Of a stretch of DNA of 14,641 bases, positions 2-14,641 are shown one piece after another. The position numbers were made by a program, and so were the translations under genes. Origin of the DNA: a virus. The notes under the pieces were generated by a model, which was not told where the DNA came from, ran no database searches, and saw nothing but the letters and a program-made list of their open reading frames with translations. The stretch is from the UHGV virus genome UHGV-0127656; one strand, written 5' to 3'. Position 1 is the first letter of the stretch. The number at the start of each line of letters is the position of its first letter.

Positions 2-364
2 CTACCATTGTTTAATTCCGTGGGTGACTCAGTTGAAGAAGCGTTGCTTGAGGCTGGTTATGGATTGGTCGCAGCGGTTGCGATTGAGATTGAAGAACGC
101 CGACCTGTTCCCACTGGTAGCGAGCCAAAAGAAGGTGAGTACGTTGTCTCTTTGCCAGTGCTACCAGCAATGAAGGCTGCACTCCACAACGCGATGATAG
201 AAACCGGCACACGCAAAGCAGAGTTGGCGCGCAAACTCGGAAAAAATGGAACACAGATTGATCGGCTTCTCGACGTCGAACATTCATCGAAAGTTGAAAC
301 TGTCGAGCTGGCACTGCATCAACTGAATAAAAATATCGCCGTATCTGTCACACCAATGCGGTGA
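2..364 (+). CDS. hicB: HicB-family antitoxin of a type II toxin-antitoxin pair, 5'-partial (frame open to the left window edge; ORF track starts it at the first Met, 8)
   Basis: C-terminal segment 'TRKAELARKLGKNGTQIDRLLDVEHSSKVETVELALHQL' resembles the DNA-binding tail of E. coli HicB as I recall it, and the preceding 'GDSVEEALLEAGYGL...' resembles the HicB N-domain. No stop between position 2 and the Met at 8, so the N-terminus and any hicA lie upstream of the window. Confidence 0.6.
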   Translation, partial: LPLFNSVGDSVEEALLEAGYGLVAAVAIEIEERRPVPTGSEPKEGEYVVSLPVLPAMKAALHNAMIETGTRKAELARKLGKNGTQIDRLLDVEHSSKVETVELALHQLNKNIAVSVTPMR

Positions 365-476: not shown

Positions 477-1862
477 TCAGGTTTCCAGCCCAAAATCGCT
501 TTGTTCTGTTTTGGCTTCGAACATCGTGAAGTTAAGCCCTTTCCCCTCTCCATGTTCCAGTTCAATCTCATTAGAAACAGCGGTCAAAATACTACGTAGA
601 TCGACATCTCCACCGCCGAACATATCGCCCAACGCCTGCTGTTTATGAATCAGTTCGTCGTTGATTTTTTGTGCCATTTTTTTGAATGCAGCCCCCATGC
701 GCTTCGCGCTTCGATTATTTGCCACGATGAATAGCGCCAACGCCTCGGCTTCCGGCGGGCTATCACCGAAGAGTCCGCGCTGGGCTATCACCTCTTCCAC
801 TGCCTGACCGTTGTCTTTGGCTTCACGAACAAGGTTAATCGCGTCCTGGAGTGCTGCTATAGCCTGTTTATCCAGACCGTTCACCTGCTCTATACCATCA
901 ACCAGACCAGTTACAGCATCATGATGTGCATCGCCAGAAATCGACTGCATTTGCGCAAAGTCACTGGCTGCTGTATTAAGCGCGGTCAGGATATTGCGCA
1001 TTTCCGGATCCGGTTCTTCCGCCACAAGCCGAACAAGTCGCTCATCCTTATAGGCTTTGGCAAAAATCGCATTCTGAATGCGATCGATAAGCTGTTTCGT
1101 TGGACGTCCATCGGCTGTAAGCAAACCTGCCGTCGCGGTATCGCCTATTTCGTGCAAAAACGCACGAATAAACGCATCATTGGACCGCGCCAGTAGATTT
1201 CCATCATCTGAAGGATTAAATAGCGCCATGACGCTCTCAGTGAGAAATTGCGCATCCGCATACGCTTTCTCACTTGCAGCCATCTCTTGCAGATCGCTGA
1301 TGTTTGAGTCGCGTGCAAATTGAGCACGATCAACGTCAGTGAGGCGCTCGCGAACCAGTACAGGCATCACCATTGCCCTGACGTCTTCGGGATTAAGGCC
1401 AAACTCTTTAGCGTGATCGATAAGATATTGTCGGTAATCTTCAGCCTGTCCTTGTTCATAAGCACGCCAGATTCCCATGCTTCGACCATTACCAGACTCA
1501 ACGACATTATCCGGACCAACAATCGGGGAACCATGACTACTCATACCCGAATCAGTGAGCTGTGCCGGGCGTAAATTGGCGGCGATACGGTTAACCTGGA
1601 GCTTACTTGACAGTCGGGTGCGATCGCGAGGCTGGAGTTCCTCCGGAAATGACGGATTTATACTTCCGTCCAGGTTGTTAGAAATGATGAGCTTTTTGGC
1701 ATCAATAACCTTGAACGCTGTTTTAACTTCGTCGCCTTTGCTGGTGACGACATAGCTGCTACGCCCCAACTTCGTCTCTTGCTTTTCAAGAGATGACACC
1801 ACAGCGATAACCCCCTCAATGTTCGCTGCGGCCAGAAGTGCTGATGTTACGTTTTGAGTCAC
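477..1862 (-). CDS. Hypothetical 461 aa protein, separately transcribed; occupies the position expected for ddrB if the upstream operon is Dar-like, but identity is unknown
   Basis: Long ORF with GTG start at 1862 preceded by AGGTGG at about 7 nt spacing. Flanked by hairpins on both sides (1932-1948 upstream, 443-461 downstream). No Walker or other catalytic motif recognised by eye. Confidence 0.55.
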   Translation of the reverse strand: MTQNVTSALLAAANIEGVIAVVSSLEKQETKLGRSSYVVTSKGDEVKTAFKVIDAKKLIISNNLDGSINPSFPEELQPRDRTRLSSKLQVNRIAANLRPAQLTDSGMSSHGSPIVGPDNVVESGNGRSMGIWRAYEQGQAEDYRQYLIDHAKEFGLNPEDVRAMVMPVLVRERLTDVDRAQFARDSNISDLQEMAASEKAYADAQFLTESVMALFNPSDDGNLLARSNDAFIRAFLHEIGDTATAGLLTADGRPTKQLIDRIQNAIFAKAYKDERLVRLVAEEPDPEMRNILTALNTAASDFAQMQSISGDAHHDAVTGLVDGIEQVNGLDKQAIAALQDAINLVREAKDNGQAVEEVIAQRGLFGDSPPEAEALALFIVANNRSAKRMGAAFKKMAQKINDELIHKQQALGDMFGGGDVDLRSILTAVSNEIELEHGEGKGLNFTMFEAKTEQSDFGLET

Positions 1863-1953: not shown

Positions 1954-2325
1954 TTACGCTGCATACCCGTTAGCTGAAACCCAGTTTACGGTCTGTTCTT
2001 TGGCCTGGTCGAGTGTCAAAAATTCACCAATATATTGAGATATGCCTCTCAAAGCATCGATGAACTCCATTTGTGATGATTTAGTAAATGCACCACTAAG
2101 GAAGTCAGCAACAATTTTAGGCGTTTCTTGTGCCGCCGGTTGCACTTCCTCTTCTTGCTGTTGTGCTGGATTATTCGATGAACCAAGCCCCAGCTTCATC
2201 ATCACTTCAACTATCCGCACGCCAATAGTGACACGTTGTACCGCAGTCGCGCTTTTTTGCGCTGACATCAGCTCAGACAGTTCTTTGCCTAAGCTAAGGC
2301 GCTCCGTTACTGATATTTTCACCAC
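1954..2325 (-). CDS. Small 123 aa protein, last gene of the operon; DdrA-like by position and size
   Basis: GTG start (2325 or 2322) overlapping the stop of the upstream 650 aa gene, AAGGGGG Shine-Dalgarno-like element upstream, terminator immediately downstream. Assignment is by synteny only. Confidence 0.45.
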   Translation of the reverse strand: MVKISVTERLSLGKELSELMSAQKSATAVQRVTIGVRIVEVMMKLGLGSSNNPAQQQEEEVQPAAQETPKIVADFLSGAFTKSSQMEFIDALRGISQYIGEFLTLDQAKEQTVNWVSANGYAA

Positions 2326-4271
2326 ACGCCCCCTTGTTGTATCTCTGCCAGAATGTTGATCAGGTGATCGGCTGCCGCACCAACAAGTGACTCGTTCTCA
2401 TCATATCGACCTGCGTTGATAAGAACATTAGCTGCCTCCTGAATGCGATCAAACTCCGCTCTAATCACCGTCAAATCACGGGACGTAAACTGCAACGGCA
2501 CGGATTTCAGATATTCCAGCGCACTGTCCGCCTCCTGATCAGCCTCACTAACTACTGGCCCATCTGAACCTGTATCAGACTCTTGGGGGGATTCAGGTTC
2601 AGACTCAGGTTCTGGTTCTTGTACTGCTTCCGGTGCCTGATCTAATGTCTGTTCAGCTTCGACTACTTCTGATTGATTCTGAAGCGCGTCATAGATATCC
2701 ATTATAAAAAGGTTCTCCCCATCTCCAAGTGGATAAGCGACGTTAGGAAATGCTTTGCGGAAGAGGATTTTTATCTGCGCCTTAAAGGTTTTCAAGTCGC
2801 TTCTAAACAGATCAACATAGCCATCAATATGGTTCGACATACTGGACGCAACCAATTCGCCTGCAATCTCTTTCAATTCATCGTCACCAGGGAGATATAG
2901 CAACTCGTACTGACTGACTTCTTCGTCTGTCAGTTTGCGGTCATACGTAATGATTCCGTGACGAGCATATTCGTAATACGGATCAGCCTGATCAGGACGG
3001 TCAAGTACAGCTTTATTTCCTTCAGGAACCGCACCAACACCCGCCGGGCGAGATTGGAGCGCATAGCGATATTTACCAACCTCCAGGGGATCAGGATGTG
3101 ATGCTGGTTGTGGCTCCTGTTCAGGCTGCGGCTGATCAGTTGGCTCAGGCTGGCCCGGCAACACATCCACTTTGTATTGATCAGCATTATGTTCACGATA
3201 GGCTTTAAGTAATTTGGTTGCAGCGTCCGCTGAACTCCCACCTTTAACAGCACTGACATCAATACTGAAATTGCCTTCTGGTGCCTCAATCGTGACAAAG
3301 CTATCACTGCCTGACGTGACATACTTAACTACAGCACCATTATCCAGCGTTGTTTGGCCTTCTGTAGCAAGATTATGTTTTATGTGTCGCAGTTGATCAT
3401 TGAAGGCACGCTCTTTAGTTCCTTGGCTCTTAGCTGACAATAAATTATCGCGTTTAGCCTGCAATTCCGCGTTAAGGGCTTTTTGTGCGTCTAATTTATT
3501 CTGCATATCATTGAGTGTTGAGCGTTTCTCTGCCAGCCCCCGCTGTGCGTCTTCAACCTGCTCAATCAGCACAGAACGTTCTTCTGCCAGCTTGTCGGCT
3601 TCATTGAGATACCCCTCAATATCAGCCTTCATTTTGTCCTGGCGCTCCTTTGCTTTTTTGAATTTTGCACTGTTACGCTCAATGAGGTTAGAAAGCGCCT
3701 GACACACCTGGCTCAGAGATACATCACGCCCACCGATTGGCGCAACAACATGCGTAACGTTTCTTTTGTTAAGAAGAAACTGAAACGCAACCAGCTCGTC
3801 ATCCCCTTTAATTCTTGTGCCGTCTGCGGTTGGAGAATGGAAAATTATGCTTGTCGTTTGTCCATCGGTTAGAGGTATTTGTGCTGTTACAACAGGGATA
3901 TTAGCAACCCGGCGCACGCGCCCAATGATTGCCCCACCGATACTATTACGTCCGTCTTCATATTCACCTGCCTCATCCGTACCCGCAGCAATGTCAGTGC
4001 CATTCAGGCCGCGATTAAGCGCCCGGACAAATGCTCGCATTGTTTGCGCTAACCGCAATTTTGTTGTGGTTATGGCTTCGAACATTGCCTCATTGGTAGT
4101 TACCAAAATTTCGTTGCCCATATAGGCCAGCTCGATATCTTCCAGCGTCGCAGGCTCGATAAGTAAATCATCCTCGGTGATATCTTCCGCCACCCAACGA
4201 TTAGGCGTATATCCAGTGAGCGTATCTGCAAAAGTGGACTGGATATTTATTCGAATAGGTTTCTTTATCAT
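2319..4271 (-). CDS. darA: 650 aa multi-domain protein: N-domain, coiled coil, beta-rich middle, Pro/Gln-rich and Pro/Glu-rich acidic linkers, C-terminal helical domain; DarA-like (P1 antirestriction / head-associated protein) by architecture
   Basis: ATGA start/stop overlap with the upstream 205 aa gene. Size close to what I recall for P1 DarA. A segment of it appears similar to the upstream 205 aa protein, matching the P1 description of Hdf as 'homolog of DarA fragment'. Not verified by search. Confidence 0.5.
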   Translation of the reverse strand: MIKKPIRINIQSTFADTLTGYTPNRWVAEDITEDDLLIEPATLEDIELAYMGNEILVTTNEAMFEAITTTKLRLAQTMRAFVRALNRGLNGTDIAAGTDEAGEYEDGRNSIGGAIIGRVRRVANIPVVTAQIPLTDGQTTSIIFHSPTADGTRIKGDDELVAFQFLLNKRNVTHVVAPIGGRDVSLSQVCQALSNLIERNSAKFKKAKERQDKMKADIEGYLNEADKLAEERSVLIEQVEDAQRGLAEKRSTLNDMQNKLDAQKALNAELQAKRDNLLSAKSQGTKERAFNDQLRHIKHNLATEGQTTLDNGAVVKYVTSGSDSFVTIEAPEGNFSIDVSAVKGGSSADAATKLLKAYREHNADQYKVDVLPGQPEPTDQPQPEQEPQPASHPDPLEVGKYRYALQSRPAGVGAVPEGNKAVLDRPDQADPYYEYARHGIITYDRKLTDEEVSQYELLYLPGDDELKEIAGELVASSMSNHIDGYVDLFRSDLKTFKAQIKILFRKAFPNVAYPLGDGENLFIMDIYDALQNQSEVVEAEQTLDQAPEAVQEPEPESEPESPQESDTGSDGPVVSEADQEADSALEYLKSVPLQFTSRDLTVIRAEFDRIQEAANVLINAGRYDENESLVGAAADHLINILAEIQQGGVW

Positions 4272-4885
4272 GCATCTTCCTCCAGGCGCGCTATTTCTTC
4301 TTTCAATACGCGAGTTTTCGCCAGTTCCTGCGCCATCTCGGTTCTAATGATTTCAGTTTCTCTTGTTGCGCGGTCTGAATTACCTTGCACCTGATTTAAT
4401 TTTTCTTTGGCCCTTTCAATATCCTCGCGGATCGCATCGCGAGATTCCTTTGCCTCTGCTAGTTTCTGCGCATTGGACTTAACGCCTTTTATTTTCTTAT
4501 TCCCATCATCAATATCTTTCGCCGCACGAGCTAACTTACGCGCCAATGATTTCTGAAATGATGATGCGCCTTTATTAAATAAAGCAGCCAGTGATTGCCC
4601 TAAAGCCATCAGCGTTTTAACTGGCTTGAAAGGAACAATTTTTCCGTTCAGTTTTACACCAGAAATATCACCAGTATCATTAACCTGAACGTCCATCGTC
4701 TGCTCATCGATTCCGATAAGGGTAAACGTGCGCGTCATGATCCCGTCTTTCTTCCTGCCATTACTGGCGGGGATCACCCTCGCTATCTTGTAGCCTCCTT
4801 TACCGATTTCTTTGACGAGTTTTGCCAGCCCCTTTTCGTTTAACTCATCATAATTAAGAAGAACATAATTAGACTTATTTGACAT
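4268..4885 (-). CDS. hdf: About 205 aa protein with N-terminal beta-rich domain and C-terminal coiled coil; Hdf-like. Start is probably the Met at 4885 rather than the ORF-track start at 4909
   Basis: AAGGAG sits 6 nt upstream of the ATG at 4885 (the ORF-track Met at 4909 has no comparable site). Region 'IARVIPASNGRKKDG...ALGQSLAALFNKGASSFQK' resembles DarA-like 'RVANIPVVTAQIPLTDG...SLSQVCQALSNLIERNSAKFKK'. Confidence 0.5.
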   Translation of the reverse strand: MSNKSNYVLLNYDELNEKGLAKLVKEIGKGGYKIARVIPASNGRKKDGIMTRTFTLIGIDEQTMDVQVNDTGDISGVKLNGKIVPFKPVKTLMALGQSLAALFNKGASSFQKSLARKLARAAKDIDDGNKKIKGVKSNAQKLAEAKESRDAIREDIERAKEKLNQVQGNSDRATRETEIIRTEMAQELAKTRVLKEEIARLEEDA

Positions 4886-5321
4886 TCCAGTCTCCTTCAC
4901 ACTTTTCAATCATAAACTGACGTTCTATGCAGTCATTGATAGGGAAAATGCGATAAAGCGGATTCAGGCGGCAATTACCGTTAGTCAATGTGACCTTTAG
5001 ATCCCACTTCGCTGGCTCAAGATATTTCGTGTCGATGAGCAAATATTCTTCTCTCTCACCGCGTTTTGACGCGTCAACTGGTCTGGTTTTCCCCGAAATA
5101 ACCACAGATGGATTTTTCAAGTCCTGCAACCAATATTCGATTTGTGCATTGCTTACCCAGCTTCGTTTAACGCGAAGCGACACAGGAAACGCTATAGCAG
5201 ACTCTTTCACTACAGCTTCGCCAATGCTCAAAATATCAACACTCTTGCGACGAAATAAGAAACGGTCAATAACGGCAACAAATGCCATGATAAAAATGAA
5301 ATAATTTCCAAAGTCACCCAT
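4875..5321 (-). CDS. 148 aa protein with one N-terminal transmembrane segment (YFIFIMAFVAVIDRFLF); LydB-like by position and size (holin antagonist in P1)
   Basis: Start ATG overlaps the stop of the upstream holin-like gene by 1 nt, with AGGTGGAG upstream. Overlaps the next gene at its 3' end. No lysozyme catalytic motif seen. Confidence 0.45.
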   Translation of the reverse strand: MGDFGNYFIFIMAFVAVIDRFLFRRKSVDILSIGEAVVKESAIAFPVSLRVKRSWVSNAQIEYWLQDLKNPSVVISGKTRPVDASKRGEREEYLLIDTKYLEPAKWDLKVTLTNGNCRLNPLYRIFPINDCIERQFMIEKCEGDWNVK

Positions 5322-5647
5322 TACTTCTCTCCACCTTTTCCCCCACTCGCTATTACGCTTAAGAGATTCAAGACGTTACTAGCTCTGGACTTCAAGCCCT
5401 GTAAAATTTCACTTCCGTTGTTACTGGCAATCAGAACAACGCAGTAAATGATGCCTTCCGGCCATTCATAGCTATCAGCCACCCAAAACCCCGCAAGCCC
5501 GGCAGTTACCGCAGTAAACAATTCACTCGCGAGGTTGAGCAGTGACGCAGAAATGCGCCCGTCTCTAACTCCGAGAAGGAATACGCCGGTTCCACTCAGC
5601 AGGGATGTTATGACTGCTACAGCCAGATTTTCATAATCTGCAAACAT
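5321..5647 (-). CDS. 108 aa small membrane protein with three predicted transmembrane helices and a charged C-terminal tail; class I holin-like (LydA-like by position)
   Basis: Hydrophobic stretches 'LAVAVITSLLSGTGVFLLGV', 'LLNLASELFTAVTAGLAGFWVA', 'GIIYCVVLIASNN' and C-terminal 'SGGKGGEK'. GGAGGGG upstream of the ATG; first gene of the operon. Confidence 0.5.
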   Translation of the reverse strand: MFADYENLAVAVITSLLSGTGVFLLGVRDGRISASLLNLASELFTAVTAGLAGFWVADSYEWPEGIIYCVVLIASNNGSEILQGLKSRASNVLNLLSVIASGGKGGEK

Positions 5648-5729
5648 ACCCCTCCAGAAATGACGTTTAACGCGGCTTCAACTTATCCAGTTTGTTATTT
5701 CCCGACTAAATGCCATTCACACAAAATGG

Positions 5730-5948
5730 ATGCATATGATGGCCCGGTGGTCCGTAAACCTCGTCACTCAGAGCGTGGAGGATGCCAAATTCGCGTATCA
5801 ACAAAATGGTCCAAACACGGCTTTAAAGAGAAATACGCTTGAATGCGCAAGATGTGAGCTGATTCTTGAGGACAAAATGATGACATGTGAGTCTTCACAA
5901 GCGTCATTCAGTGAATATAATGCCCCCCTCTCAGATACCACTAACTGA
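5730..5948 (+). CDS. Possible small plus-strand ORF (72 aa) divergent from the operon and ending 13 nt before a strong terminator; product unknown
   Basis: ORF stop at 5946-5948 followed by the hairpin/T-tract at 5962-5993. No convincing ribosome binding site or recognisable domain; an overlapping 60 aa frame (5660-5842) is an alternative. Confidence 0.2.
   Translation: MHMMARWSVNLVTQSVEDAKFAYQQNGPNTALKRNTLECARCELILEDKMMTCESSQASFSEYNAPLSDTTN
5894..5921 (+). promoter_or_regulatory. Candidate sigma70-type promoter: -35 TTCACA (5894-5899), 16 nt spacer, -10 TATAAT (5916-5921)
   Basis: Hexamers read directly from sequence. Perfect -10, 5/6 match to TTGACA at -35; lies about 40 nt upstream of the terminator at 5962-5993. 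Confidence 0.3.
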
Positions 5949-5961
5949 GTGTTCATTTTGC

Positions 5962-5993
5962 CCGCCGTCATTGACTGGACGGCGGCTTTTTTG
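5962..5993 (+). terminator. Rho-independent terminator on the plus strand
   Basis: 8 bp GC-rich stem ccgccgtc/gacggcgg (5962-5969 / 5978-5985), 8 nt loop, followed by cTTTTTTg (5986-5993). Confidence 0.6.
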
Positions 5994-6042
5994 TACCAAA
6001 GGATTGTATTACTAAAAAAGGTCACAAAAGCACTCACTAATA

Positions 6043-6065
6043 AAGCCCTCAACAAAAGAGGGCTT
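6043..6065 (-). terminator. Stem-loop downstream of the tail fiber assembly gene; weak terminator candidate for the tail operon
   Basis: 8 bp stem aagccctc/gagggctt with 7 nt loop. Only a short TATT follows on the minus strand, so termination efficiency is doubtful. Confidence 0.3.
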
Positions 6066-6107
6066 GAAATATCAAAAAAGCAGTGCTGATTGGATTGTTA
6101 TGATTGT

Positions 6108-6530
6108 TTATGCAGGCATCTCAGGCCATGAGATATCTGCATCAACAGAAGTGTCAACTCTATTAAGAAGAACTCTATACCTCTTTAACTTTGTCAACAT
6201 TTCTATTTCCTCATCAGTGGCAATATCCATATCAACAGCATCCTGAAGCGTTGATATTTTTATGCTCACATCATTCATAAGACTACTTTTGGTGTTTTCA
6301 GCAATGCTGACTCTATCCTCTAAGCTCATAGGTTGTGGGTCAGATAACATTGGATAACCATCGCCATTTGCAATTATTATTTTCCCATTGCCATACCCTG
6401 ATAACAATTCATCATATAAGTCATCAGGTATATGTACAGCATCGGACGGCCATGAACCGTTTTTATCGTAATCTTCTTTTAGTCTATCGTCGTAGAAACC
6501 ACCAGTATCTTTGCTGTAATACTTTGCCAT
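6108..6530 (-). CDS. Tail fiber assembly protein (Tfa/gpG/U family chaperone)
   Basis: 140 aa protein immediately downstream of the tail fiber gene. C-terminal 'KLKRYRVLLNRVDTS...WPEMP' matches the conserved Tfa motif as I recall it. ATG with GAAGG upstream. Confidence 0.85.
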   Translation of the reverse strand: MAKYYSKDTGGFYDDRLKEDYDKNGSWPSDAVHIPDDLYDELLSGYGNGKIIIANGDGYPMLSDPQPMSLEDRVSIAENTKSSLMNDVSIKISTLQDAVDMDIATDEEIEMLTKLKRYRVLLNRVDTSVDADISWPEMPA

Positions 6531-6561: not shown

Positions 6562-9069
6562 TTAATACCCATAAGCAACATACTGTGCATATACTTTATC
6601 AGTAGAGCTACTTTTTACTGTAAAACCAGTGGCTGAGTTGTTGTATGTATAAAGAATTGCATTAACAGCATTCCCGCTATTAGGTGAAATCACAACTACC
6701 GCACACGCCTCAGGAAAAGCAGTCGGAAATTTAACTACGCTTCCTGGAGTAACAGCCGCTATAATCCCCCACTGCATCATCACCTTAGTTGATGTATCCT
6801 TATGCCATCCATGAATGTTGGCATATGCTGTGTTTTTAGCCTGATATTTCGTGTTGAAATTACTATAGTTACCAGGGGTAATCTGACCAGCGGCAGATAA
6901 ATTCCCCATAACCCTTACATGACCATCAGCACGTCCTAATTCTACGCGACCATCACCGCCATCTATCTTTAATGGAGTGTAAACGACATCACCATTAACA
7001 TTTTGCCCAGTGGTTGATATCTGGAAACTATATCCAGTATTAGTTATTAGGAATCCATAGTTATTATTATAAGTTAGGCGTATAGCATTTTGGCTGCTGG
7101 ATATAATTTCACCGGTAACAGTACCACCTGTTGTTGGTAACGCACCAACATGACTTGCCGTTAATGTGATATCTGCAGAACCATCAAACTTAACACCGTT
7201 GATTGTGCGGGCTGTTTGCAGTTTTGTAGCGGTTGCAGCATTACCTGTTGTGTTCTGGTTACCGGCAATGTTCACACCCGGCAGGTCGATATTGGCGGTG
7301 CCATCAAATGCCACCCCGCCGATCGTTCGGGCCATCTTGAGCTTTGTGGCAGTATCTGCGTTTCCCGTCAAATTACCTGTAATGCCACCACTAACTGTTA
7401 CCCCATTACCGATGGACACCAACCCGGTTCTTAAATTTATAGCAAAAGGTCTTAATGGGCCGATGTCACCATTTTCTCCCTCACCTTCATTTGTCGGGAT
7501 AAGATGAAGATATTCCTCGGATCTCCTGAAGATAAGGCCAAAGTCCTGGTTAAATATTCGAAGGGCATTTATTGTGCCAATTTTTAGCTGCCCCCCCATT
7601 GTGTCGCCAGAACGCTGAACTGCGTTACCAGCTTGAGAAGCAATATCCGTTAAGCCAAGATCTTCAGGGGTCAGAGTAATATCTGCCGACCCATCAAATG
7701 CCACACCGTTAATCTTTCTGGCTGTTTTTAATTTCGTCGCAGTATCGGCGTTCCCGGTCAGCGTACCAGTGATCCCCGCGCTGAAAGTCTGGCGTGCACT
7801 CCAGGTATTAGCTGTGCTCAACAGGGGGAGCTTTTCTCCGCTGGTTCCGAGTTCTCTTAAACCAAGGTATTGGATAACAGCCAGTGTGCTTGTTTTAGCA
7901 AGAATATCGCGACCGACTGACGTTAAATCAGTCTGGGCTACAGTGTCTGTTCCGGTAAAGTACGGTAATTTATTTGCCCCCGTCGCCAGGTCAGCGAGCG
8001 CGGTTAAGGTTGCGTCGAGAGGCTGCTTACCTGCCAGGGCATTTGTCATTGTAGCCGCAAAGTTCGGGTCATTGCCCAGCGCCGCAGCAAGCTCATTAAG
8101 AGTATCAAGAGCTTCTGGTGATGAGCCGACCAATGCAGAAATAGCGGCACGAACATAAGCGGTTGTTGCAATCTGAGTGTTGTTCGTACCTTGTGACGCT
8201 GTAGGCGCTGTTGGCACCCCTGTAAATGCCGGGCTTAATAACGGTGCTTTAAGAGCTAAAGCAGCATTAATCGTCTGGCTAAACTGAGGATCATTGTTAA
8301 TTGCATCTGCAATTTTTTTCAGCGTATCCAACGCTGAAGGAGAACCATCAATAAGGGCGGTTATTGCGGCCTGAACAAAGGCAGTGTTTGCGATTTGTGT
8401 ACTGTTTGTACCTTGTTCCGGAGTTGGAGATTTAGGTATACCAATAAACTCCGGGCTATCAACCGGAGCTTTTAGTTTGTTTAACGTGCTGATAGCAAGA
8501 GGTGTTGCGGCTTTATATTCTTCGTCACTATCCAAAGCACTGGAAAACTCAACACCAACAGCACGATTAGCACGATATTCAGTGCTAATCATATCTGCGG
8601 TAACGGCTTGAGCATTGTCAGGCACGATCACGCGGCATAGCTCAATCTGGTTAGATGCTATTTCCTCATCAACGAGAGCAATAATTCTCGCTGCGCTAAT
8701 ATCCGATGAGCTATCTACCTGGCTGGTTTTCACTCCATGTTCGTAATTAGCTTCAAGAACGATGATTGTCGTTACACCAGCTTCTACAGGAACAAGAACA
8801 TCACTGACTTGCTGCACGGATATCTGACATTTACCCACGTCAATTGAAGCCGCCCCTCTTCCCTCTGTTTTCTCGGATGTAATACGCACAAACAGACCAT
8901 CCCCTGGCACCGGTTCAAACCCACAGTACACTCCGGGCAGAACGATATTTTTCATCTTCCTGTTTAGAGCTTCGGTGCTATACAGCTCAAAGTATTGCAT
9001 GTCTGCAATTAGTGGAGCGGAAATGTCCGAAGATAAGGTGACAATATTCTTTACTTTATCTGCGCACAT
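6562..9069 (-). CDS. Tail fiber protein (835 aa) with a central region resembling the P2 gpH / P1 S / Mu S / lambda Stf family and a distinct C-terminal receptor-binding domain
   Basis: Segments such as 'SPAFTGVPTAPTASQGTNNTQIATTAYV...SSPEALDTLNELAAALGNDPNFAATMTNALAGKQPLDATLTAL...LPYFTGTD...LTSVGRDILAK' closely resemble P2 gpH as I recall it. Also carries repeated 'TGNADTATKLKTAR.INGV.FDGSADITL' units. ATG with GAGGGA upstream. Confidence 0.9.
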   Translation of the reverse strand: MCADKVKNIVTLSSDISAPLIADMQYFELYSTEALNRKMKNIVLPGVYCGFEPVPGDGLFVRITSEKTEGRGAASIDVGKCQISVQQVSDVLVPVEAGVTTIIVLEANYEHGVKTSQVDSSSDISAARIIALVDEEIASNQIELCRVIVPDNAQAVTADMISTEYRANRAVGVEFSSALDSDEEYKAATPLAISTLNKLKAPVDSPEFIGIPKSPTPEQGTNSTQIANTAFVQAAITALIDGSPSALDTLKKIADAINNDPQFSQTINAALALKAPLLSPAFTGVPTAPTASQGTNNTQIATTAYVRAAISALVGSSPEALDTLNELAAALGNDPNFAATMTNALAGKQPLDATLTALADLATGANKLPYFTGTDTVAQTDLTSVGRDILAKTSTLAVIQYLGLRELGTSGEKLPLLSTANTWSARQTFSAGITGTLTGNADTATKLKTARKINGVAFDGSADITLTPEDLGLTDIASQAGNAVQRSGDTMGGQLKIGTINALRIFNQDFGLIFRRSEEYLHLIPTNEGEGENGDIGPLRPFAINLRTGLVSIGNGVTVSGGITGNLTGNADTATKLKMARTIGGVAFDGTANIDLPGVNIAGNQNTTGNAATATKLQTARTINGVKFDGSADITLTASHVGALPTTGGTVTGEIISSSQNAIRLTYNNNYGFLITNTGYSFQISTTGQNVNGDVVYTPLKIDGGDGRVELGRADGHVRVMGNLSAAGQITPGNYSNFNTKYQAKNTAYANIHGWHKDTSTKVMMQWGIIAAVTPGSVVKFPTAFPEACAVVVISPNSGNAVNAILYTYNNSATGFTVKSSSTDKVYAQYVAYGY
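7159..7779 (-). repeat. Three copies of a ~110 bp coding repeat inside the tail fiber gene (7159-7269, 7279-7389, 7669-7779)
   Basis: Encode 'TGN(A/-)DTATKL(K/Q)(T/M)AR.I.GV.FDG.A.I.L' at about aa 431-467, 561-597 and 601-637. Confidence 0.7.
8059..8481 (-). repeat. Two tandem degenerate ~200 bp coding repeats inside the tail fiber gene (8059-8259 and 8281-8481)
   Basis: Encode paired units 'LKAP..SP.F.G.P.(A/S)PT...GTN.TQIA.TA(F/Y)V.AAI.AL...SP.ALDTL...A.A..NDP.F' at about aa 197-263 and 271-337. The DNA-level similarity is visible by eye. Confidence 0.7.
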
Positions 9070-10486: not shown

Positions 10487-11917
10487 TTACGGATAGGTTA
10501 TGCTGAACGTTGATGATTCCACGTCCAGATAAACAAAATCATTAAAGTACACTGCTTCTTTCATGTTCTGCGTAGCCACGTCATAAGACAGGAACATATC
10601 CAGCGATTCGATTACTCGCCAGATATCTTTTACTTTGACCTGTGCATAACATTGCTGTGAGTCGTCATCACTCTGCAATAGCTGGTTAAATGACATGGAG
10701 TCTTTACCGAAGTTCTCCTCCAGTGCCGCTTTAATTGCAGTTAGCGCGTCATCCACCAGCACACTCTTTTTTACGATACCGGTAAATTTGATGTTGAACG
10801 GCTGTTCATTGGTGGCGACGTATTCGAACTTCTTATTCAGCTCATTAGGGATACTCTCAAGGGCTGATAATATCTCTGTTTTCAGAGCTTCCTGTGTTAC
10901 GCCGGGCTTATGCCCACAAAAGAAAATTTTGTTGATATTACGCACATCAAAGCCCGTTATTTTCTCCTGTAGCGCCTCCCCCCACACGTTAAGCCATGAC
11001 GTGCCACTGACCACGTTCTGAATGAACTGGCGGTAATCACCGCCCCAAACAACCTGCTCATCGTAGGCCACATAATACTGCGCCCTGTTTCGGGTTTCCT
11101 CGGTAGTTTCCATGCCACCACCGCCAGAAATGATCGAATCGGTTTTTACTTCCAGTGATTCGACATACCCGGAGATGTTCCCTGCTGGTTCAAGTTTCTG
11201 GCCTTCAGCCAGCGTGTAATCACCGAGGCTTGCCATAATGTCAATGCGTACCTGACTCCCTGCCGCTGGCATCATCCCCATTGATCCATCACCGAAGCGC
11301 ACGCCGATCTGTTCTGTCGGCTTATAAACCAACACATAATGTTTACTGTTATCCCTGGACATGCGGAACAGGGGGTTATGTGTCCATTTTTCCTCGACAC
11401 CATTAGTTATCACGACAACTTCCAGGCTGGCGACTTCTGCTGTTAACTCACGGGAAAGTAACAGCGTCAAGAATGGTGTTTCTTGCACCACGTCGAACGT
11501 TACGCTGACTGCTTCATGCTGTTTTACTTCTATGCCGGGTACTGTTTCACCAGCAGGGATAACAACACTACTGCTGGTTGCAATTGGTGTCTGGTCACTT
11601 GTCAGTAATTCAGCCCCTCCGGGTAGAGTAATATCCCTGTCGGTTTTGTTGGTGATGGAAACAGTGCCGTATGACGCATCGACCAAACGACCGACATAGC
11701 CACGGTCTTCCGCTGCCGCGAGAATACTTGCTCTACGCGTCGCGGTGGAAATGAATCCTTCTGTAAGTGCACGGCTTGCAAATGTACGCGCAATATAAAC
11801 AATCTGCGCGCCCAAAACGGACTGCATTTGAATAAACTGGCTGTTTACAAATCGCGCCCACCAGGGGTTTTCGTTCAGCTTGGCATTAAACTTGTCCAGT
11901 AATTCGGTAATACTCAC
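10487..11917 (-). CDS. Baseplate J-like protein (476 aa)
   Basis: Size and position between a gp25/W-like gene and tail fiber genes. GTG start overlapping the stop of the W-like gene (GTGA). Confidence 0.65.
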   Translation of the reverse strand: MSITELLDKFNAKLNENPWWARFVNSQFIQMQSVLGAQIVYIARTFASRALTEGFISTATRRASILAAAEDRGYVGRLVDASYGTVSITNKTDRDITLPGGAELLTSDQTPIATSSSVVIPAGETVPGIEVKQHEAVSVTFDVVQETPFLTLLLSRELTAEVASLEVVVITNGVEEKWTHNPLFRMSRDNSKHYVLVYKPTEQIGVRFGDGSMGMMPAAGSQVRIDIMASLGDYTLAEGQKLEPAGNISGYVESLEVKTDSIISGGGGMETTEETRNRAQYYVAYDEQVVWGGDYRQFIQNVVSGTSWLNVWGEALQEKITGFDVRNINKIFFCGHKPGVTQEALKTEILSALESIPNELNKKFEYVATNEQPFNIKFTGIVKKSVLVDDALTAIKAALEENFGKDSMSFNQLLQSDDDSQQCYAQVKVKDIWRVIESLDMFLSYDVATQNMKEAVYFNDFVYLDVESSTFSITYP

Positions 11918-12288
11918 GCTGTATCTCCGCTATCTTTCTGCATAACAACATTCACGGTGCCTCCTTTTGCCTGGAAGCTAATTAGTAACTGGTCTTCAGA
12001 GACAGTCGCGCAGCGGATCGCCTGGAGTCCAAGCCCTGGTAAGTCCTGCTGTAGCTTCGTCATCATTCGCGCTTCAATCGCCACTTCAACAATGTGTGAC
12101 GTATCAGAACCGAAGGGTTCGTGTTTGAACTCCTCCATCGGATTCCCCCATGACGGCAATCCGTAAACGCTGCCATTTGGTGTCCGTAGCCATTCATCGA
12201 GTCGGGCTATCCAGGCGTTTGTGTCGCCTTCAGCGATCACCACCCCGCTCTCGTTTGTCTGAAGGCGGGCATCAATCTCATAAAGCAT
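11914..12288 (-). CDS. Baseplate wedge protein, GPW/gp25-like (124 aa)
   Basis: Small protein immediately upstream of the baseplate J-like gene; start 5 nt after the stop of the large upstream ORF. Assigned by size and synteny. Confidence 0.55.
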   Translation of the reverse strand: MLYEIDARLQTNESGVVIAEGDTNAWIARLDEWLRTPNGSVYGLPSWGNPMEEFKHEPFGSDTSHIVEVAIEARMMTKLQQDLPGLGLQAIRCATVSEDQLLISFQAKGGTVNVVMQKDSGDTA

Positions 12289-12293
12289 CGGTC

Positions 12294-14641
12294 TTAATCC
12301 TCCAGTAATTTGTCAAGAGATGGGTCATTGATAGTCGTGCTGGCACGCTGACGAGGTTGTGGTTGTGATGTGTTCACAACTTTGTCCTGATCGCCTTTTC
12401 GGTTGTCTTTGCTTACGCCAAGAATCTCTTTGAGAACGGAATAAACGTTCTCCAGTGCTTTCAACATAGCCGGATCGTTATTTGCGGTATCTGTTGTTAG
12501 CATCTGCCTTATTCCGCTTCGTGCGAGGTCCGTGACGATTGGTAGCTGCGGAGGCATTGCAAGGAACGGTTCTTTAGCAGCCACGCCCGAAGCAAACAGG
12601 CTTTGATTGATTGCGCCAGTTGTGTCCCTGATCGTATCCGCCGTTTTCTGTATGCCACCATTCAGCCAACCGCCAACACTCCTTGTTAACGGACTAATAG
12701 CGCGAGCAACATCGGTATTCTGTCCAGAGGACTGCAATACAAAGTCATTTAACATTCCGGTGCTATCAATACCGCCCACAAGTCGCGAGAGGTTATCTCC
12801 AACGGCGGGGAGGACGGCGGAGCCTACCTGGTTAAGCCCTGACACAGTTGAATCAAATAGCGAGCCAAAGAAGCCCCTGTCCTCACCTTCAACCACCTTG
12901 TAGCCGTTGTCGTACATCTGCACACCCGCCGGTGTCGATGTGGCACGCTTCTCGCTGATGGTTGCCGGACTCTCCGGAAGCAGGCCAATGGTTTCTGTAT
13001 CGCGGTTAACGTTGCGCTTTTGCTGTATAGCCGTAGTGATATCGGCGATCTGTTCCGCCTTCTGGAAACTAAAGTTTTTGCCCGTTGCTCTGGATATTTT
13101 TTCAACAAGAAACTTATCCAATTGCTTGGCTTTTGCTGCTAACGAGGACATCTCTTCCGGAGAACTGACAGGGCCGAGATTTAGCCCCATATTGGGATCT
13201 CCCCCAACTATCCCGGCGATGACGCCCCCAACACCGTCTGCACTCATTAACCGCTCCGTCAATCCGGCTGCGGCGGAAGAATTGCCACTAGCTTTCGCGT
13301 GGCTGATCGCCTGGGCATTTTCCTGTTGAGCTGCCTTCGGTTTTTTAGCTGCCTGTGCGTGTTGAACCACGTCAGTAGGGCTAGGCATTACAGCCTGGGC
13401 TACGCTTGACGCAGGAATAGCAGAAGATGAGCCGTTGGCGTATTTGACTTTGCTACCGACACTATATTGGGAGTTGCGAGCGATTAGAGGACCGCCCTTT
13501 TCCTTCTGGATTTTATTAATGTGTTCCAGCGTTTCATCATTGAATTGCCCTTCCCAACGCCCAGTTTTAGCGTTGAATGAACCAAGAGCTGTTTTGATGA
13601 AATTGTTGTTAACCGCCGGGTTACCCCCCTCCTTCGTCGCAATGGCGCGAACAAGGTGCGTCATAACTTCAGGGTTGCTAACGTCTATTTTATCGTTGGG
13701 GGATACCCCGAGATATTTGCTGACGTTTTCAATGTACTGATTGGTGTTGTTCTCTGTTGGTGGTGCCCATTTTGAAATGATGCTGGATACTGTTTGCAGC
13801 TTCTGATACCCGGCGGCAGCACTTGTACCGTTGTAATAACTCGATACCTGGTTTGCCAATGCCCGAATCCCTTCTTCGGGCGTATTAAACCGCGCAAAAC
13901 GCTGTTCGCCTTTCGCGTTCGGCGCTTCCAGTACCGCCCCCTCCTGATTTGCAAAAACCAGGTTCCCCAGGTTGTTATTCCGGTAATTCCTGTTCTTGGC
14001 GTTGCTTCCGCCTATATTCAGATCAGCCGTTATTGTATTTTTTTCAGGCGCTTTAAATTCGTCTGGCGATTTGTAGCCGTGTTCACCCACGCCATCCTCA
14101 CCTCTGCGCCCGCCCTGTAGCTGTCGGGCCAGATCATTAATTGCGGCTACCGTTTGCTTGGTGCCATCTTCAACGGCTTTCTTAACCTGCGCAGTGCCTT
14201 CGCTGCTTGATGAGAACGATTCTTTTAGGCTGCTGAATGCGTTCTTCGACGCGTCGATAGAACTATTTATGCCGCGAGCGATATTGCTGGTATCAAGACT
14301 CTGAAGTTTTTGTCCGACACCTTCAAAGCCTAGCGCGGACATCCCCTCGCCAATGAGGTTAGCCGCTCCCGTCACCAGACCGCCCATATCCAGGACGTTA
14401 GCAGCGGCGTAGGCGCTCTTTTGCTGTGTTGTAACGTCCTGCCCTTCCTTCAGGTTATAAGTCGCCCTCTGCGCTTCTGTGTCGCTGTAGCCGTCTACGG
14501 CATCATAACCAACCATAGCCACCTGGCCGATGACTGGAATCGCCCTGAATCCGGCCCTTGCGGCAACACCTCCGGCAGCTTTGAGAGCCACTTTTCCAGC
14601 TTCTTTTTTCGCGATGTTTTCACCAGTGGCACCGGCAACCT
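12294..14641 (-). CDS. Large tail protein, 5'-partial (C-terminal ~780 codons in window; tape-measure / injection-protein-like position)
   Basis: Frame is open from the stop at 12294 to the right window edge (the ORF-track start at 14591 is GTG and codons 14592-14639 contain no stop). Gly/Ser/Asn-rich, with a segment 'NNLGNLVFANQEGAVLEAPNAKGEQRFARFNTPEEGIRALANQV' that looks like a conserved globular domain. Sits directly upstream of the baseplate genes. Confidence 0.65.
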   Translation of the reverse strand, partial: VAGATGENIAKKEAGKVALKAAGGVAARAGFRAIPVIGQVAMVGYDAVDGYSDTEAQRATYNLKEGQDVTTQQKSAYAAANVLDMGGLVTGAANLIGEGMSALGFEGVGQKLQSLDTSNIARGINSSIDASKNAFSSLKESFSSSSEGTAQVKKAVEDGTKQTVAAINDLARQLQGGRRGEDGVGEHGYKSPDEFKAPEKNTITADLNIGGSNAKNRNYRNNNLGNLVFANQEGAVLEAPNAKGEQRFARFNTPEEGIRALANQVSSYYNGTSAAAGYQKLQTVSSIISKWAPPTENNTNQYIENVSKYLGVSPNDKIDVSNPEVMTHLVRAIATKEGGNPAVNNNFIKTALGSFNAKTGRWEGQFNDETLEHINKIQKEKGGPLIARNSQYSVGSKVKYANGSSSAIPASSVAQAVMPSPTDVVQHAQAAKKPKAAQQENAQAISHAKASGNSSAAAGLTERLMSADGVGGVIAGIVGGDPNMGLNLGPVSSPEEMSSLAAKAKQLDKFLVEKISRATGKNFSFQKAEQIADITTAIQQKRNVNRDTETIGLLPESPATISEKRATSTPAGVQMYDNGYKVVEGEDRGFFGSLFDSTVSGLNQVGSAVLPAVGDNLSRLVGGIDSTGMLNDFVLQSSGQNTDVARAISPLTRSVGGWLNGGIQKTADTIRDTTGAINQSLFASGVAAKEPFLAMPPQLPIVTDLARSGIRQMLTTDTANNDPAMLKALENVYSVLKEILGVSKDNRKGDQDKVVNTSQPQPRQRASTTINDPSLDKLLED

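Follow-up and report, generated by a model that had tools for sequence, protein, structure and literature searches.

Hdf and DarA of a predicted D6-like phage-plasmid share one module and are probably ancient paralogues

Background

A stretch of 14,641 nucleotides (nt) of the virus genome UHGV-0127656 (hereafter the window, that is, the whole stretch of DNA that was analyzed, with positions counted from its first letter) carries two adjacent genes, hdf and darA, which encode proteins of 205 and 650 amino acids (aa). In this work we analyzed the relationship between these two proteins. Hdf and DarA share one module, formed by an α+β domain known as DarA_N (residues 11-112 of Hdf and 62-206 of DarA) followed by a long helix. 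We conclude with considerable confidence that hdf and darA are ancient paralogues, that they are the orthologues of the P1 genes in a D6-like phage-plasmid, and that their products most likely work as they do in P1.

The paralogy of Hdf and DarA was already known; it is expressed in the gene name, in the Pfam family PF18788, in the work of Iyer et al. (2017, PMC5512222), and in the annotation of phage D6. DarA_N (PF18788), which Iyer et al. (2017, PMC5512222) described among the 'polyvalent proteins' of phages, makes up the N-terminal domain in DarA and is the only domain of Hdf. In P1-like phages, Hdf and DarA are known as anti-restriction proteins located inside the head. The P1 proteins have also been seen in situ by cryo-electron microscopy (cryo-EM; Zheng et al. 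2026, PMC12810830). The result presented here is the correct recognition of a known relationship in a phage that adds to an already established group.

Results

Identity of the two proteins

Both open reading frames (ORFs) exist as they had been described in the original prediction, which was made from the sequence of the window: one of 205 aa at 4268-4885 and the other of 650 aa at 2319-4271, both on the minus strand. The 205-aa protein matches the PHROG 1620 family 'Hdf-like antirestriction' (E=2.8e-72, positions 1-204) and the P1 Hdf chain of the Protein Data Bank (PDB), 9ukm_H (E=3.4e-25). It shows 80% amino-acid identity to Hdf of D6, and its gene is placed between lydB and darA, as in P1 and D6. 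By these matches it is assigned as the orthologue of Hdf. The 650-aa protein reaches 1083.7 bits against NF052326 (cut-off 350; protein 2-649, model 1-654), matches the PDB chain 9ukm_I with E=3.3e-124, and is 79% identical in amino acids to DarA of D6; its sequence identifies it as a full-length equivalog of DarA. Across the operon region the window is 82% identical at the nucleotide level to Escherichia phage D6 (NC_050154), and the E. coli plasmid pMUB-MIN14-1 (NZ_CP069647) is 98.5% identical to the window over its whole length. From these identities we classify the window as a D6-like, P1-family phage-plasmid of E. coli.

The features of the two genes are as follows.

4268-4885, minus strand: hdf coding sequence, 205 aa; ATG at 4885, with AAGGAGA before the start
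4550-4855, minus strand: DarA_N domain of Hdf, aa 11-112; Pfam PF18788, E=6e-18, 65 bits
4640-4708, minus strand: Hdf family signature, D60 (4706-4708) and N80-G-K82 (4640-4648); invariant columns
4475-4507, minus strand: flexible hinge of Hdf, aa 127-137, basic; predicted local distance difference test score (pLDDT) <50 at 127-134
4274-4474, minus strand: C-terminal long α-helix of Hdf, aa 138-204; AlphaFold2 helix 138-204, pLDDT ~85; heptad a/d positions occupied in 14/20
4268-4271, minus strand: ATGA overlap of the hdf stop (TGA) and the darA start (ATG), from the sequence
2319-4271, minus strand: darA coding sequence, 650 aa; NCBIfam NF052326, anti_RE_DarA equivalog
4074-4271, minus strand: acidic N-terminal segment of DarA, aa 1-66, no counterpart in Hdf; net charge -9, pLDDT <50 at 1-31 and 58-63
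3654-4088, minus strand: DarA_N domain of DarA, aa 62-206, paralogous to Hdf 11-112; Pfam PF18788, E=7.7e-40
3762-3866, minus strand: DarA family signature, D136 (3864-3866) and N168-K-R170 (3762-3770); invariant columns
3426-3716, minus strand: long α-helix of DarA, aa 186-282; AlphaFold2 helix 186-282, pLDDT 85-94
3156-3398, minus strand: β-rich domain of DarA, aa ~292-372, no counterpart in Hdf; AlphaFold2 strands 305-329 and alignment to P1
2889-3077, minus strand: DarA_C domain, aa 399-461, no counterpart in Hdf; Pfam PF18789, E=4.3e-19

An overlap of the ATGA type between a stop and a start codon is the usual layout for translational coupling, and hdf and darA are predicted to be a translationally coupled pair. 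For hdf, a TTG start at 4909 that would give a protein of 213 aa was rejected, given that the ATG at 4885 has AAGGAGA before it at a suitable distance and that 205 aa is the length of all 52 homologues.

In plasmid pMUB-MIN14-1 a 1-nt insertion, located 15 nt before the hdf stop (equivalent to window position 4285), joins hdf and darA in a single ORF of 855 aa that is annotated as 'head protein' (locus L004, 5700-6460). The lydB gene of the same plasmid is frameshifted by a 1-nt deletion in a run of C (window position 5091), and four single-base indels occur within 7 kb. The fusion was considered as a natural tandem DarA_N variant and set aside: the nearby indels make an error of assembly no less probable.

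The shared module

The Pfam DarA_N model has 122 positions and a gathering threshold of 27 bits, and both proteins score above it: Hdf with 65.3 bits (residues 11-106, model 2-121) and DarA with 136 bits (residues 62-201, model 1-122). Two family alignments, one with 28 Hdf-type sequences and the other with 24 of the DarA type, were compared with hhalign, one of the checks proposed in the original prediction, and the two families matched with a probability of 97.1% (E=5.6e-11), aligning Hdf 40-205 with DarA 116-284. Since coiled coils can inflate such scores, the comparison was repeated on the globular parts only; with the helices removed the score was 45.2 (E=6.4e-7), versus a maximum of 19.9 in 30 column permutations and 14.4 for the reversed profile. 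Identity across the shared domain is only about 20%.

The signature given for the DarA-N family by Iyer et al. (2017, PMC5512222) combines an Asp that is conserved with a motif of the form Asn-x-basic. The corresponding columns are co-aligned by hhalign (D60 and N80-G-K82 of Hdf with D136 and N168-K-R170 of DarA), and D...N-x-[KR] does not vary in either of the family alignments. Residues D60, Q62, N80 and K82 are invariant in 52 Hdf sequences, and D136, G137, Q138, N168 and K169 in the alignment of the DarA family.

The AlphaFold2 models of Hdf (mean pLDDT 78) and of DarA 1-330 (mean pLDDT 74) show the same order of elements, i.e. a short helix, a run of β-strands, and then a very long helix; an α+β fold is common to Hdf-type and DarA-type members. 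In the Hdf model, DarA_N includes a helix at 21-29, six strands within 34-84, and a helix that starts at 92 (pLDDT ~85). Three strands of equal lengths coincide at an offset of 76 residues: 44-46, 49-58 and 63-69 in Hdf correspond to 120-122, 125-134 and 139-145 in DarA. When the Hdf model was compared by Foldseek with 350,542 PDB chains, just two matches had E<1e-3, and both were P1 DarA (9vz0_I and 9ukm_I).

In Hdf, according to its model and to its sequence orthology with P1 Hdf, DarA_N is the sole globular domain and is followed by the C-terminal helix. DarA has the full plan expected for this protein, DarA_N, long helix, β-rich domain and DarA_C. Beyond the shared module, DarA carries an N-terminal propeptide (presumed, see below), three loop insertions within DarA_N relative to Hdf (at about 89-113, 146-158 and 172-185), the β-rich domain, DarA_C, and an acidic C-terminal region.

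Register and extent of the homology

The original prediction had described the 205-aa protein as paralogous to an internal part of the 650-aa protein, as in the P1 name Hdf, and this is borne out by Pfam, hhalign and orthology. The parallel segments that it proposed were right in part. A long helix does follow the domain in both proteins, and the register of the C-terminal helix was correct: hhalign pairs 'KTLMALGQSLAALFNKGASSFQK' of Hdf with 'VSLSQVCQALSNLIERNSAKFKK' of DarA, and the C-terminal helix of the domain had been properly aligned ('...SLAALFNKGASSFQK' with '...ALSNLIERNSAKFKK'). In contrast, the N-terminal match was shifted by 12 residues. It paired IP with IP and KKDG with LTDG (offset 88-89), whereas hhalign aligns Hdf 40-69 with DarA 116-145 (offset 76), where IDEQ is matched with TDGQ (Hdf 'IDEQTMDVQVN' with DarA 'TDGQTTSIIFH'). 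The true N-terminal equivalence in the window pair is 'LIGIDEQTMDVQVND' with 'QIPLTDGQTTSIIFHS', and the P1 pair makes this register obvious ('LSDGQILAIQVN' versus 'LSDGQTISILFH'). The 88-89 register was discarded after ungapped BLOSUM62 scoring over Hdf 33-69, where it gives -15 to -23 versus -5 at the hhalign offset. Over Hdf 40-69, offset 76 is the best among offsets 60-100, and it agrees with the independently predicted strands.

Regarding its extent, the homology had been placed at about aa 112-210 of DarA; the unit is larger, starting at Hdf 11 and DarA 62 by Pfam, and the helices align up to Hdf 205 and DarA 284. The internal paralogy had also been taken as the strongest support for a Dar-like operon; the operon is confirmed, although orthology with P1 and D6 supports it far more strongly than the paralogy does.

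Probable pairing of Hdf and DarA by analogy with P1

In P1, cryo-EM reveals 55 DarA-Hdf pairs on the capsid's inner face at the penton-hexon junctions (PDB 9UKM / 9VZ0; Zheng et al. 2026, PMC12810830). DarA and Hdf are joined by a parallel bundle of long helices, and their N-domains turn a positively charged face against the DNA (PMC12810830); an independent preprint on the P1 structure is also available (bioRxiv 10.1101/2025.11.26.689930). The virion contains about 400 copies of Hdf and about 100 of DarA, with 55 capsid pairs seen (PMC12810830). According to PMC12810830 each protein needs the other for its incorporation, and genetic work on P1, as cited in PMC12810830 and PMC9024508, found that the loss of either one reduces large heads from ~80% to ~15% and keeps DdrA, DdrB, DarB and Ulx out of the head. 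An N-terminal portion of ~9 kDa of P1 DarA is removed by the prohead protease, and the DNA is shielded from type I restriction.

By analogy, Hdf and DarA of the window would be co-produced late in infection and would pair through their parallel helices to form a heterodimer on the inner capsid wall, at the penton-hexon junctions, with the basic N-domains turned toward the packaged DNA. The pair would be needed to bring DdrA, DdrB, DarB and Ulx into the head and to promote large heads, and both proteins would exit the head with the DNA, guarding it against type I restriction. Most likely, then, the two paralogues form pairs along the inner wall of the capsid, bring in the other Dar proteins, and contribute to setting head size.

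Several features of the window proteins can be placed on the P1 structure. Residues 1-69 of P1 DarA are not visible and are reported as cleaved (PMC12810830); residues 1-66 of the window DarA are presumed to be a propeptide that is cleaved by the prohead protease. The insertion at about 89-113 of the window DarA corresponds to the hexon-contacting loop of P1 DarA; Hdf does not have this hexon-type loop, which fits the reported mobile, unresolved N-domain of Hdf in the virion. The β-rich domain of DarA is the penton-binding domain in P1 (PMC12810830). The hinge of the window Hdf corresponds to the loop 125-134 of P1 Hdf, of which residues 135-203 were modelled by cryo-EM; this segment attaches to the capsid wall and is the partner of the DarA helix (PMC12810830).

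The window proteins have several features that this mechanism calls for. Their N-domains are basic (+7 and +5), in line with family means of +5.6 and +6.9. A heptad pattern runs through each long helix, and according to hhalign and heptad analysis Hdf 141-205 aligns with DarA 217-284, with residue 141 of the former matched to residue 217 of the latter in the same heptad phase. The charge of the helices departs from that in P1: in the window their net charge is -3 in Hdf and -2 in DarA, versus +9 and -8 in P1. Across 52 homologues the charge of the Hdf helix ranges from -5 to +3, and in the D6-like family it is near neutral. To judge from these sequences, the P1-type electrostatic complementarity of the pairing helices is not a conserved feature, and because bulk charge complementarity is absent, the pairing determinants of P1 cannot simply be transferred to the window pair.

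These charges also favour the view that Hdf and DarA are homologous but act separately here, for example with Hdf as a homo-oligomeric DNA-binding internal protein and no obligate heterodimer; the same view draws support from the fact that most of P1 Hdf lies outside the resolved pairs. However, incorporation of the P1 proteins is mutually dependent and they are observed as pairs, the ATGA overlap that couples the genes is conserved, and the aligned helices share a common heptad phase, so we regard separate action as improbable and retain joint action in the head.

Age of the duplication

The original prediction spoke of an intra-operon duplication, which is adequate as a description of the outcome but not as a recent event, given that the split is ancient. 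The window Hdf matches P1 Hdf far better (E=4e-31) than it does its own DarA (E=0.02), and even a short DarA_N protein of 160 aa from Xanthomonas phage Rb1 is matched with E=9e-14. Likewise, the window DarA matches the long DarA_N protein of Rb1 with E=8e-17 to 4e-23, whereas comparisons of short versus long forms never gave a value better than E=3e-4. Short forms cluster together and long forms cluster together, the Rb1 proteins included, and Xenorhabdus elements, too, have Hdf and DarA pairs whose locus tags are adjacent. Since each form is closer to its distant counterpart, the split between Hdf and DarA predates the lineages of P1, D6, Xenorhabdus and Rb1.

In Rb1 (locus L003) the short protein, a domain plus a helix, is encoded at 5992-6474, and about 5 kb away (region 11173-12321) lies the gene of a giant internal head protein in which an inorganic pyrophosphatase domain is followed by DarA_N. 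The short-plus-long DarA_N arrangement is, as far as these sequences indicate, widespread.

A recent partial duplication of darA within the operon of this element or of its close relatives could account for the fact that hdf and darA adjoin and overlap and that the shared module is collinear. We consider this origin very improbable: the shared domain is only ~20% identical, Hdf resembles P1 Hdf, and even the Rb1 short protein, far more than the DarA of its own operon, the Rb1 long protein is likewise the closer match of DarA, and the paired genes are present in P1, D6 and the Xenorhabdus elements.

Pairwise similarity of the two sequences

The points that weigh against the homology come from pairwise and single-family comparisons. 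BLASTP of Hdf versus DarA yields a single alignment (Hdf 91-163, DarA 185-246, E=0.02) that covers only the helical, low-complexity part. Full-length Smith-Waterman alignment gives z=1.95, a score reached by 44 of 1000 shuffles; for the globular domain only, z=0.59 (520 of 2000 shuffles reach the score), and for the helices only, z=0.60. The D6 pair behaves in the same way in the shuffle test (z=1.5). Hidden Markov models (HMMs) of a single family miss the other one: with 20 shuffled decoys for each target, searches of DarA sequences with the Hdf-domain HMM, and the converse searches, reached at best 10-11 bits versus 7 for the decoys. In the P1 pair, Smith-Waterman alignment of the globular region gives z=7.6 (none of 2000 shuffles) and BLASTP E=3e-4 (Hdf 29-115, DarA 107-210); the name Hdf, 'homolog of DarA fragment', rests on the similarity of the P1 pair.

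Homology is not demonstrable from the two sequences of the window alone, and the pairwise data cannot carry the claim. Because the single-family HMMs fail to cross-detect, it rests on the profile-profile comparison, the curated Pfam model, the P1 pair and the structure. Two observations had been named in the original prediction as its refutation. The first one, a score indistinguishable from shuffled controls, is what was formally obtained for the window pair; the second one, unrelated predicted folds, was not, since the models have the same order of elements and Foldseek retrieves P1 DarA. That Hdf and DarA are unrelated, and resemble each other by chance plus the compositional bias of coiled coils, would agree with the shuffle-like scores of domain and helices, the restriction of the BLASTP match to the low-complexity helix, and the failure of the single-family HMMs, but it is already contradicted by the evidence for homology and hardly deserves any credence.

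Neighbouring genes and other features

Every large ORF of the window is on the minus strand. In the downstream direction of this strand, the gene order is a sit-like transglycosylase gene, baseplate genes, the tail-fibre gene S, the tail-fibre assembly gene U and lydA; after U there is a 460-nt spacer (5648-6107), followed by lydA, lydB, hdf, darA, ddrA and a ddrB-like gene. The order lydA-lydB-hdf-darA-ddrA-ddrB is identical in the window, D6 and P1. The neighbours of hdf and darA are:

5321-5647, minus strand: lydA, holin; Pfam Phage_holin_3_3
4875-5321, minus strand: lydB, holin antagonist; Pfam LydB, E=1.5e-24
1954-2325, minus strand: ddrA; PHROG 1855, DdrA-like, E=1.4e-44
477-1862, minus strand: short ddrB-like gene, 461 aa; Pfam ddrB-ParB, E=2.7e-40

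The ddrB-like protein has the ddrB-ParB domain and aligns to positions 10-447 of a P1-type family of 995 positions; it does not include the C-terminal half, the site of a metallopeptidase according to Iyer et al. (PMC5512222). The ddrB of D6 is a short form like that of the window. In plasmid pMUB-MIN14-1 (locus L006, 21945-28781) there is a protein of 2278 aa with N6_Mtase and SNF2/helicase domains, whose size and architecture equal those of P1 DarB. A DarB-like cargo, which in P1 is loaded by Hdf and DarA, therefore appears, from its predicted domains, to be present on the matching plasmid as well.

When the P1 late promoter LPdar was compared by eye with window positions 5648-5720, only a partial match of the AAGTT... 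type was seen, and no promoter is claimed; an Rfam scan of the spacer between lydA and U gave no significant match. Within this spacer there is a 5' remnant of the cin DNA-invertase gene, of about 90 nt (5789-5880, plus strand), which is 80-83% identical to cin of P1, D6 and SJ46, and in which 17 of 24 residues equal those of D6 Cin aa 11-34. Given that the window has neither an intact cin nor the alternative S'/U' tail-fibre segment, the invertible C segment would have been lost and the tail-fibre type fixed. The spacer also contains a σ70-like promoter near the consensus (TTCACA-16-TATAAT, 5894-5921, plus strand) and, downstream of it, a strong intrinsic terminator (5962-5985, plus strand) with 7/8 G-C pairs followed by a T-run. 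Together (5894-5994, plus strand), the predicted promoter and terminator would produce an RNA of about 60 nt that runs antisense to the tail-fibre and lysis genes; alternatively, the terminator could end a plus-strand ORF of 72 aa (5730-5948) that contains the cin remnant.

At one end of the window, positions 8-364 (plus strand) encode the C-terminal part of a HicB-like antitoxin; in the matching plasmid a HicA toxin gene is found just upstream, and therefore a hicAB toxin-antitoxin module adjoins the dar operon. The tail-fibre gene S (6562-9069, minus strand) has an internal direct repeat of 98 nt (7289-7386 and 7679-7776, 71% identity) that encodes a repeated 'GNADTATKL...NGV.FDGSADI' motif, and in the related plasmid this gene is 40 codons longer at the repeat region.

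Discussion

The correspondence between the window and P1 includes the size and the plan of both proteins. P1 Hdf and DarA have 203 and 639 aa, versus 205 and 650 aa in the window; the window DarA can be aligned to P1 DarA from end to end (E=1e-145, 40% identical), and the two Hdf proteins are 40% identical across 144 aa. The arrangement of domains agrees, with DarA_N and a helix in both proteins and the β-rich and DarA_C domains in DarA. The window nevertheless diverges more from P1 (40% identity) than from D6 (~80%); its ddrB is half the length of that of P1, and the neighbouring cin and invertible segment of P1 have been lost. D6 is the closest characterised phage, with orf28 (Hdf-like), orf27 (DarA-like) and a similarly short ddrB. 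In contrast to the window, where only the cin remnant is left, D6 retains cin and the invertible tail-fibre segment beside lydA.

Elsewhere, DarA_N is found inside giant multi-enzyme head proteins, such as the one of Rb1 that combines it with an inorganic pyrophosphatase; in the window, in contrast, it is present in two small non-enzymatic proteins. A functional analogue has been proposed in PMC12810830, CpmA/CpmB of SaPI1, accessory internal proteins that alter capsid size via the scaffolding network. CpmA/CpmB exit the capsid, whereas DarA-Hdf are retained when the head matures and leave it by ejection together with the DNA; the two systems are likened by function only.

Given that the helices are in phase and that in P1 the N-domains lie side by side, the Hdf-DarA heterodimer may be the pseudo-symmetric descendant of a homodimer. 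We propose tentatively, as an idea that is rather less likely to be right than wrong, that the ancestor was a homodimeric head protein of the type 'DarA_N plus coiled coil', that its duplication left helices in register and a two-lobed face for DNA made of the two basic N-domains, and that in the D6-like lineage the bulk charge complementarity of the P1 pair has given way to another pairing code or Hdf also self-associates. If this were true, the short and long DarA_N proteins of Rb1 would mark a general two-component adaptor for cargo loading in the heads of myoviruses.

Conclusions

The window is confirmed as the carrier of a bona fide P1-type darA operon, and the register and extent of the homology between Hdf and DarA are corrected for the D6-like lineage; beyond this annotation, little is added. 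In D6-like elements the homology is too old for pairwise detection, which calls for caution with alignments 'seen by eye'. The charge pattern of the helices, which is not conserved, provides a testable point on what holds the Hdf-DarA pair together.

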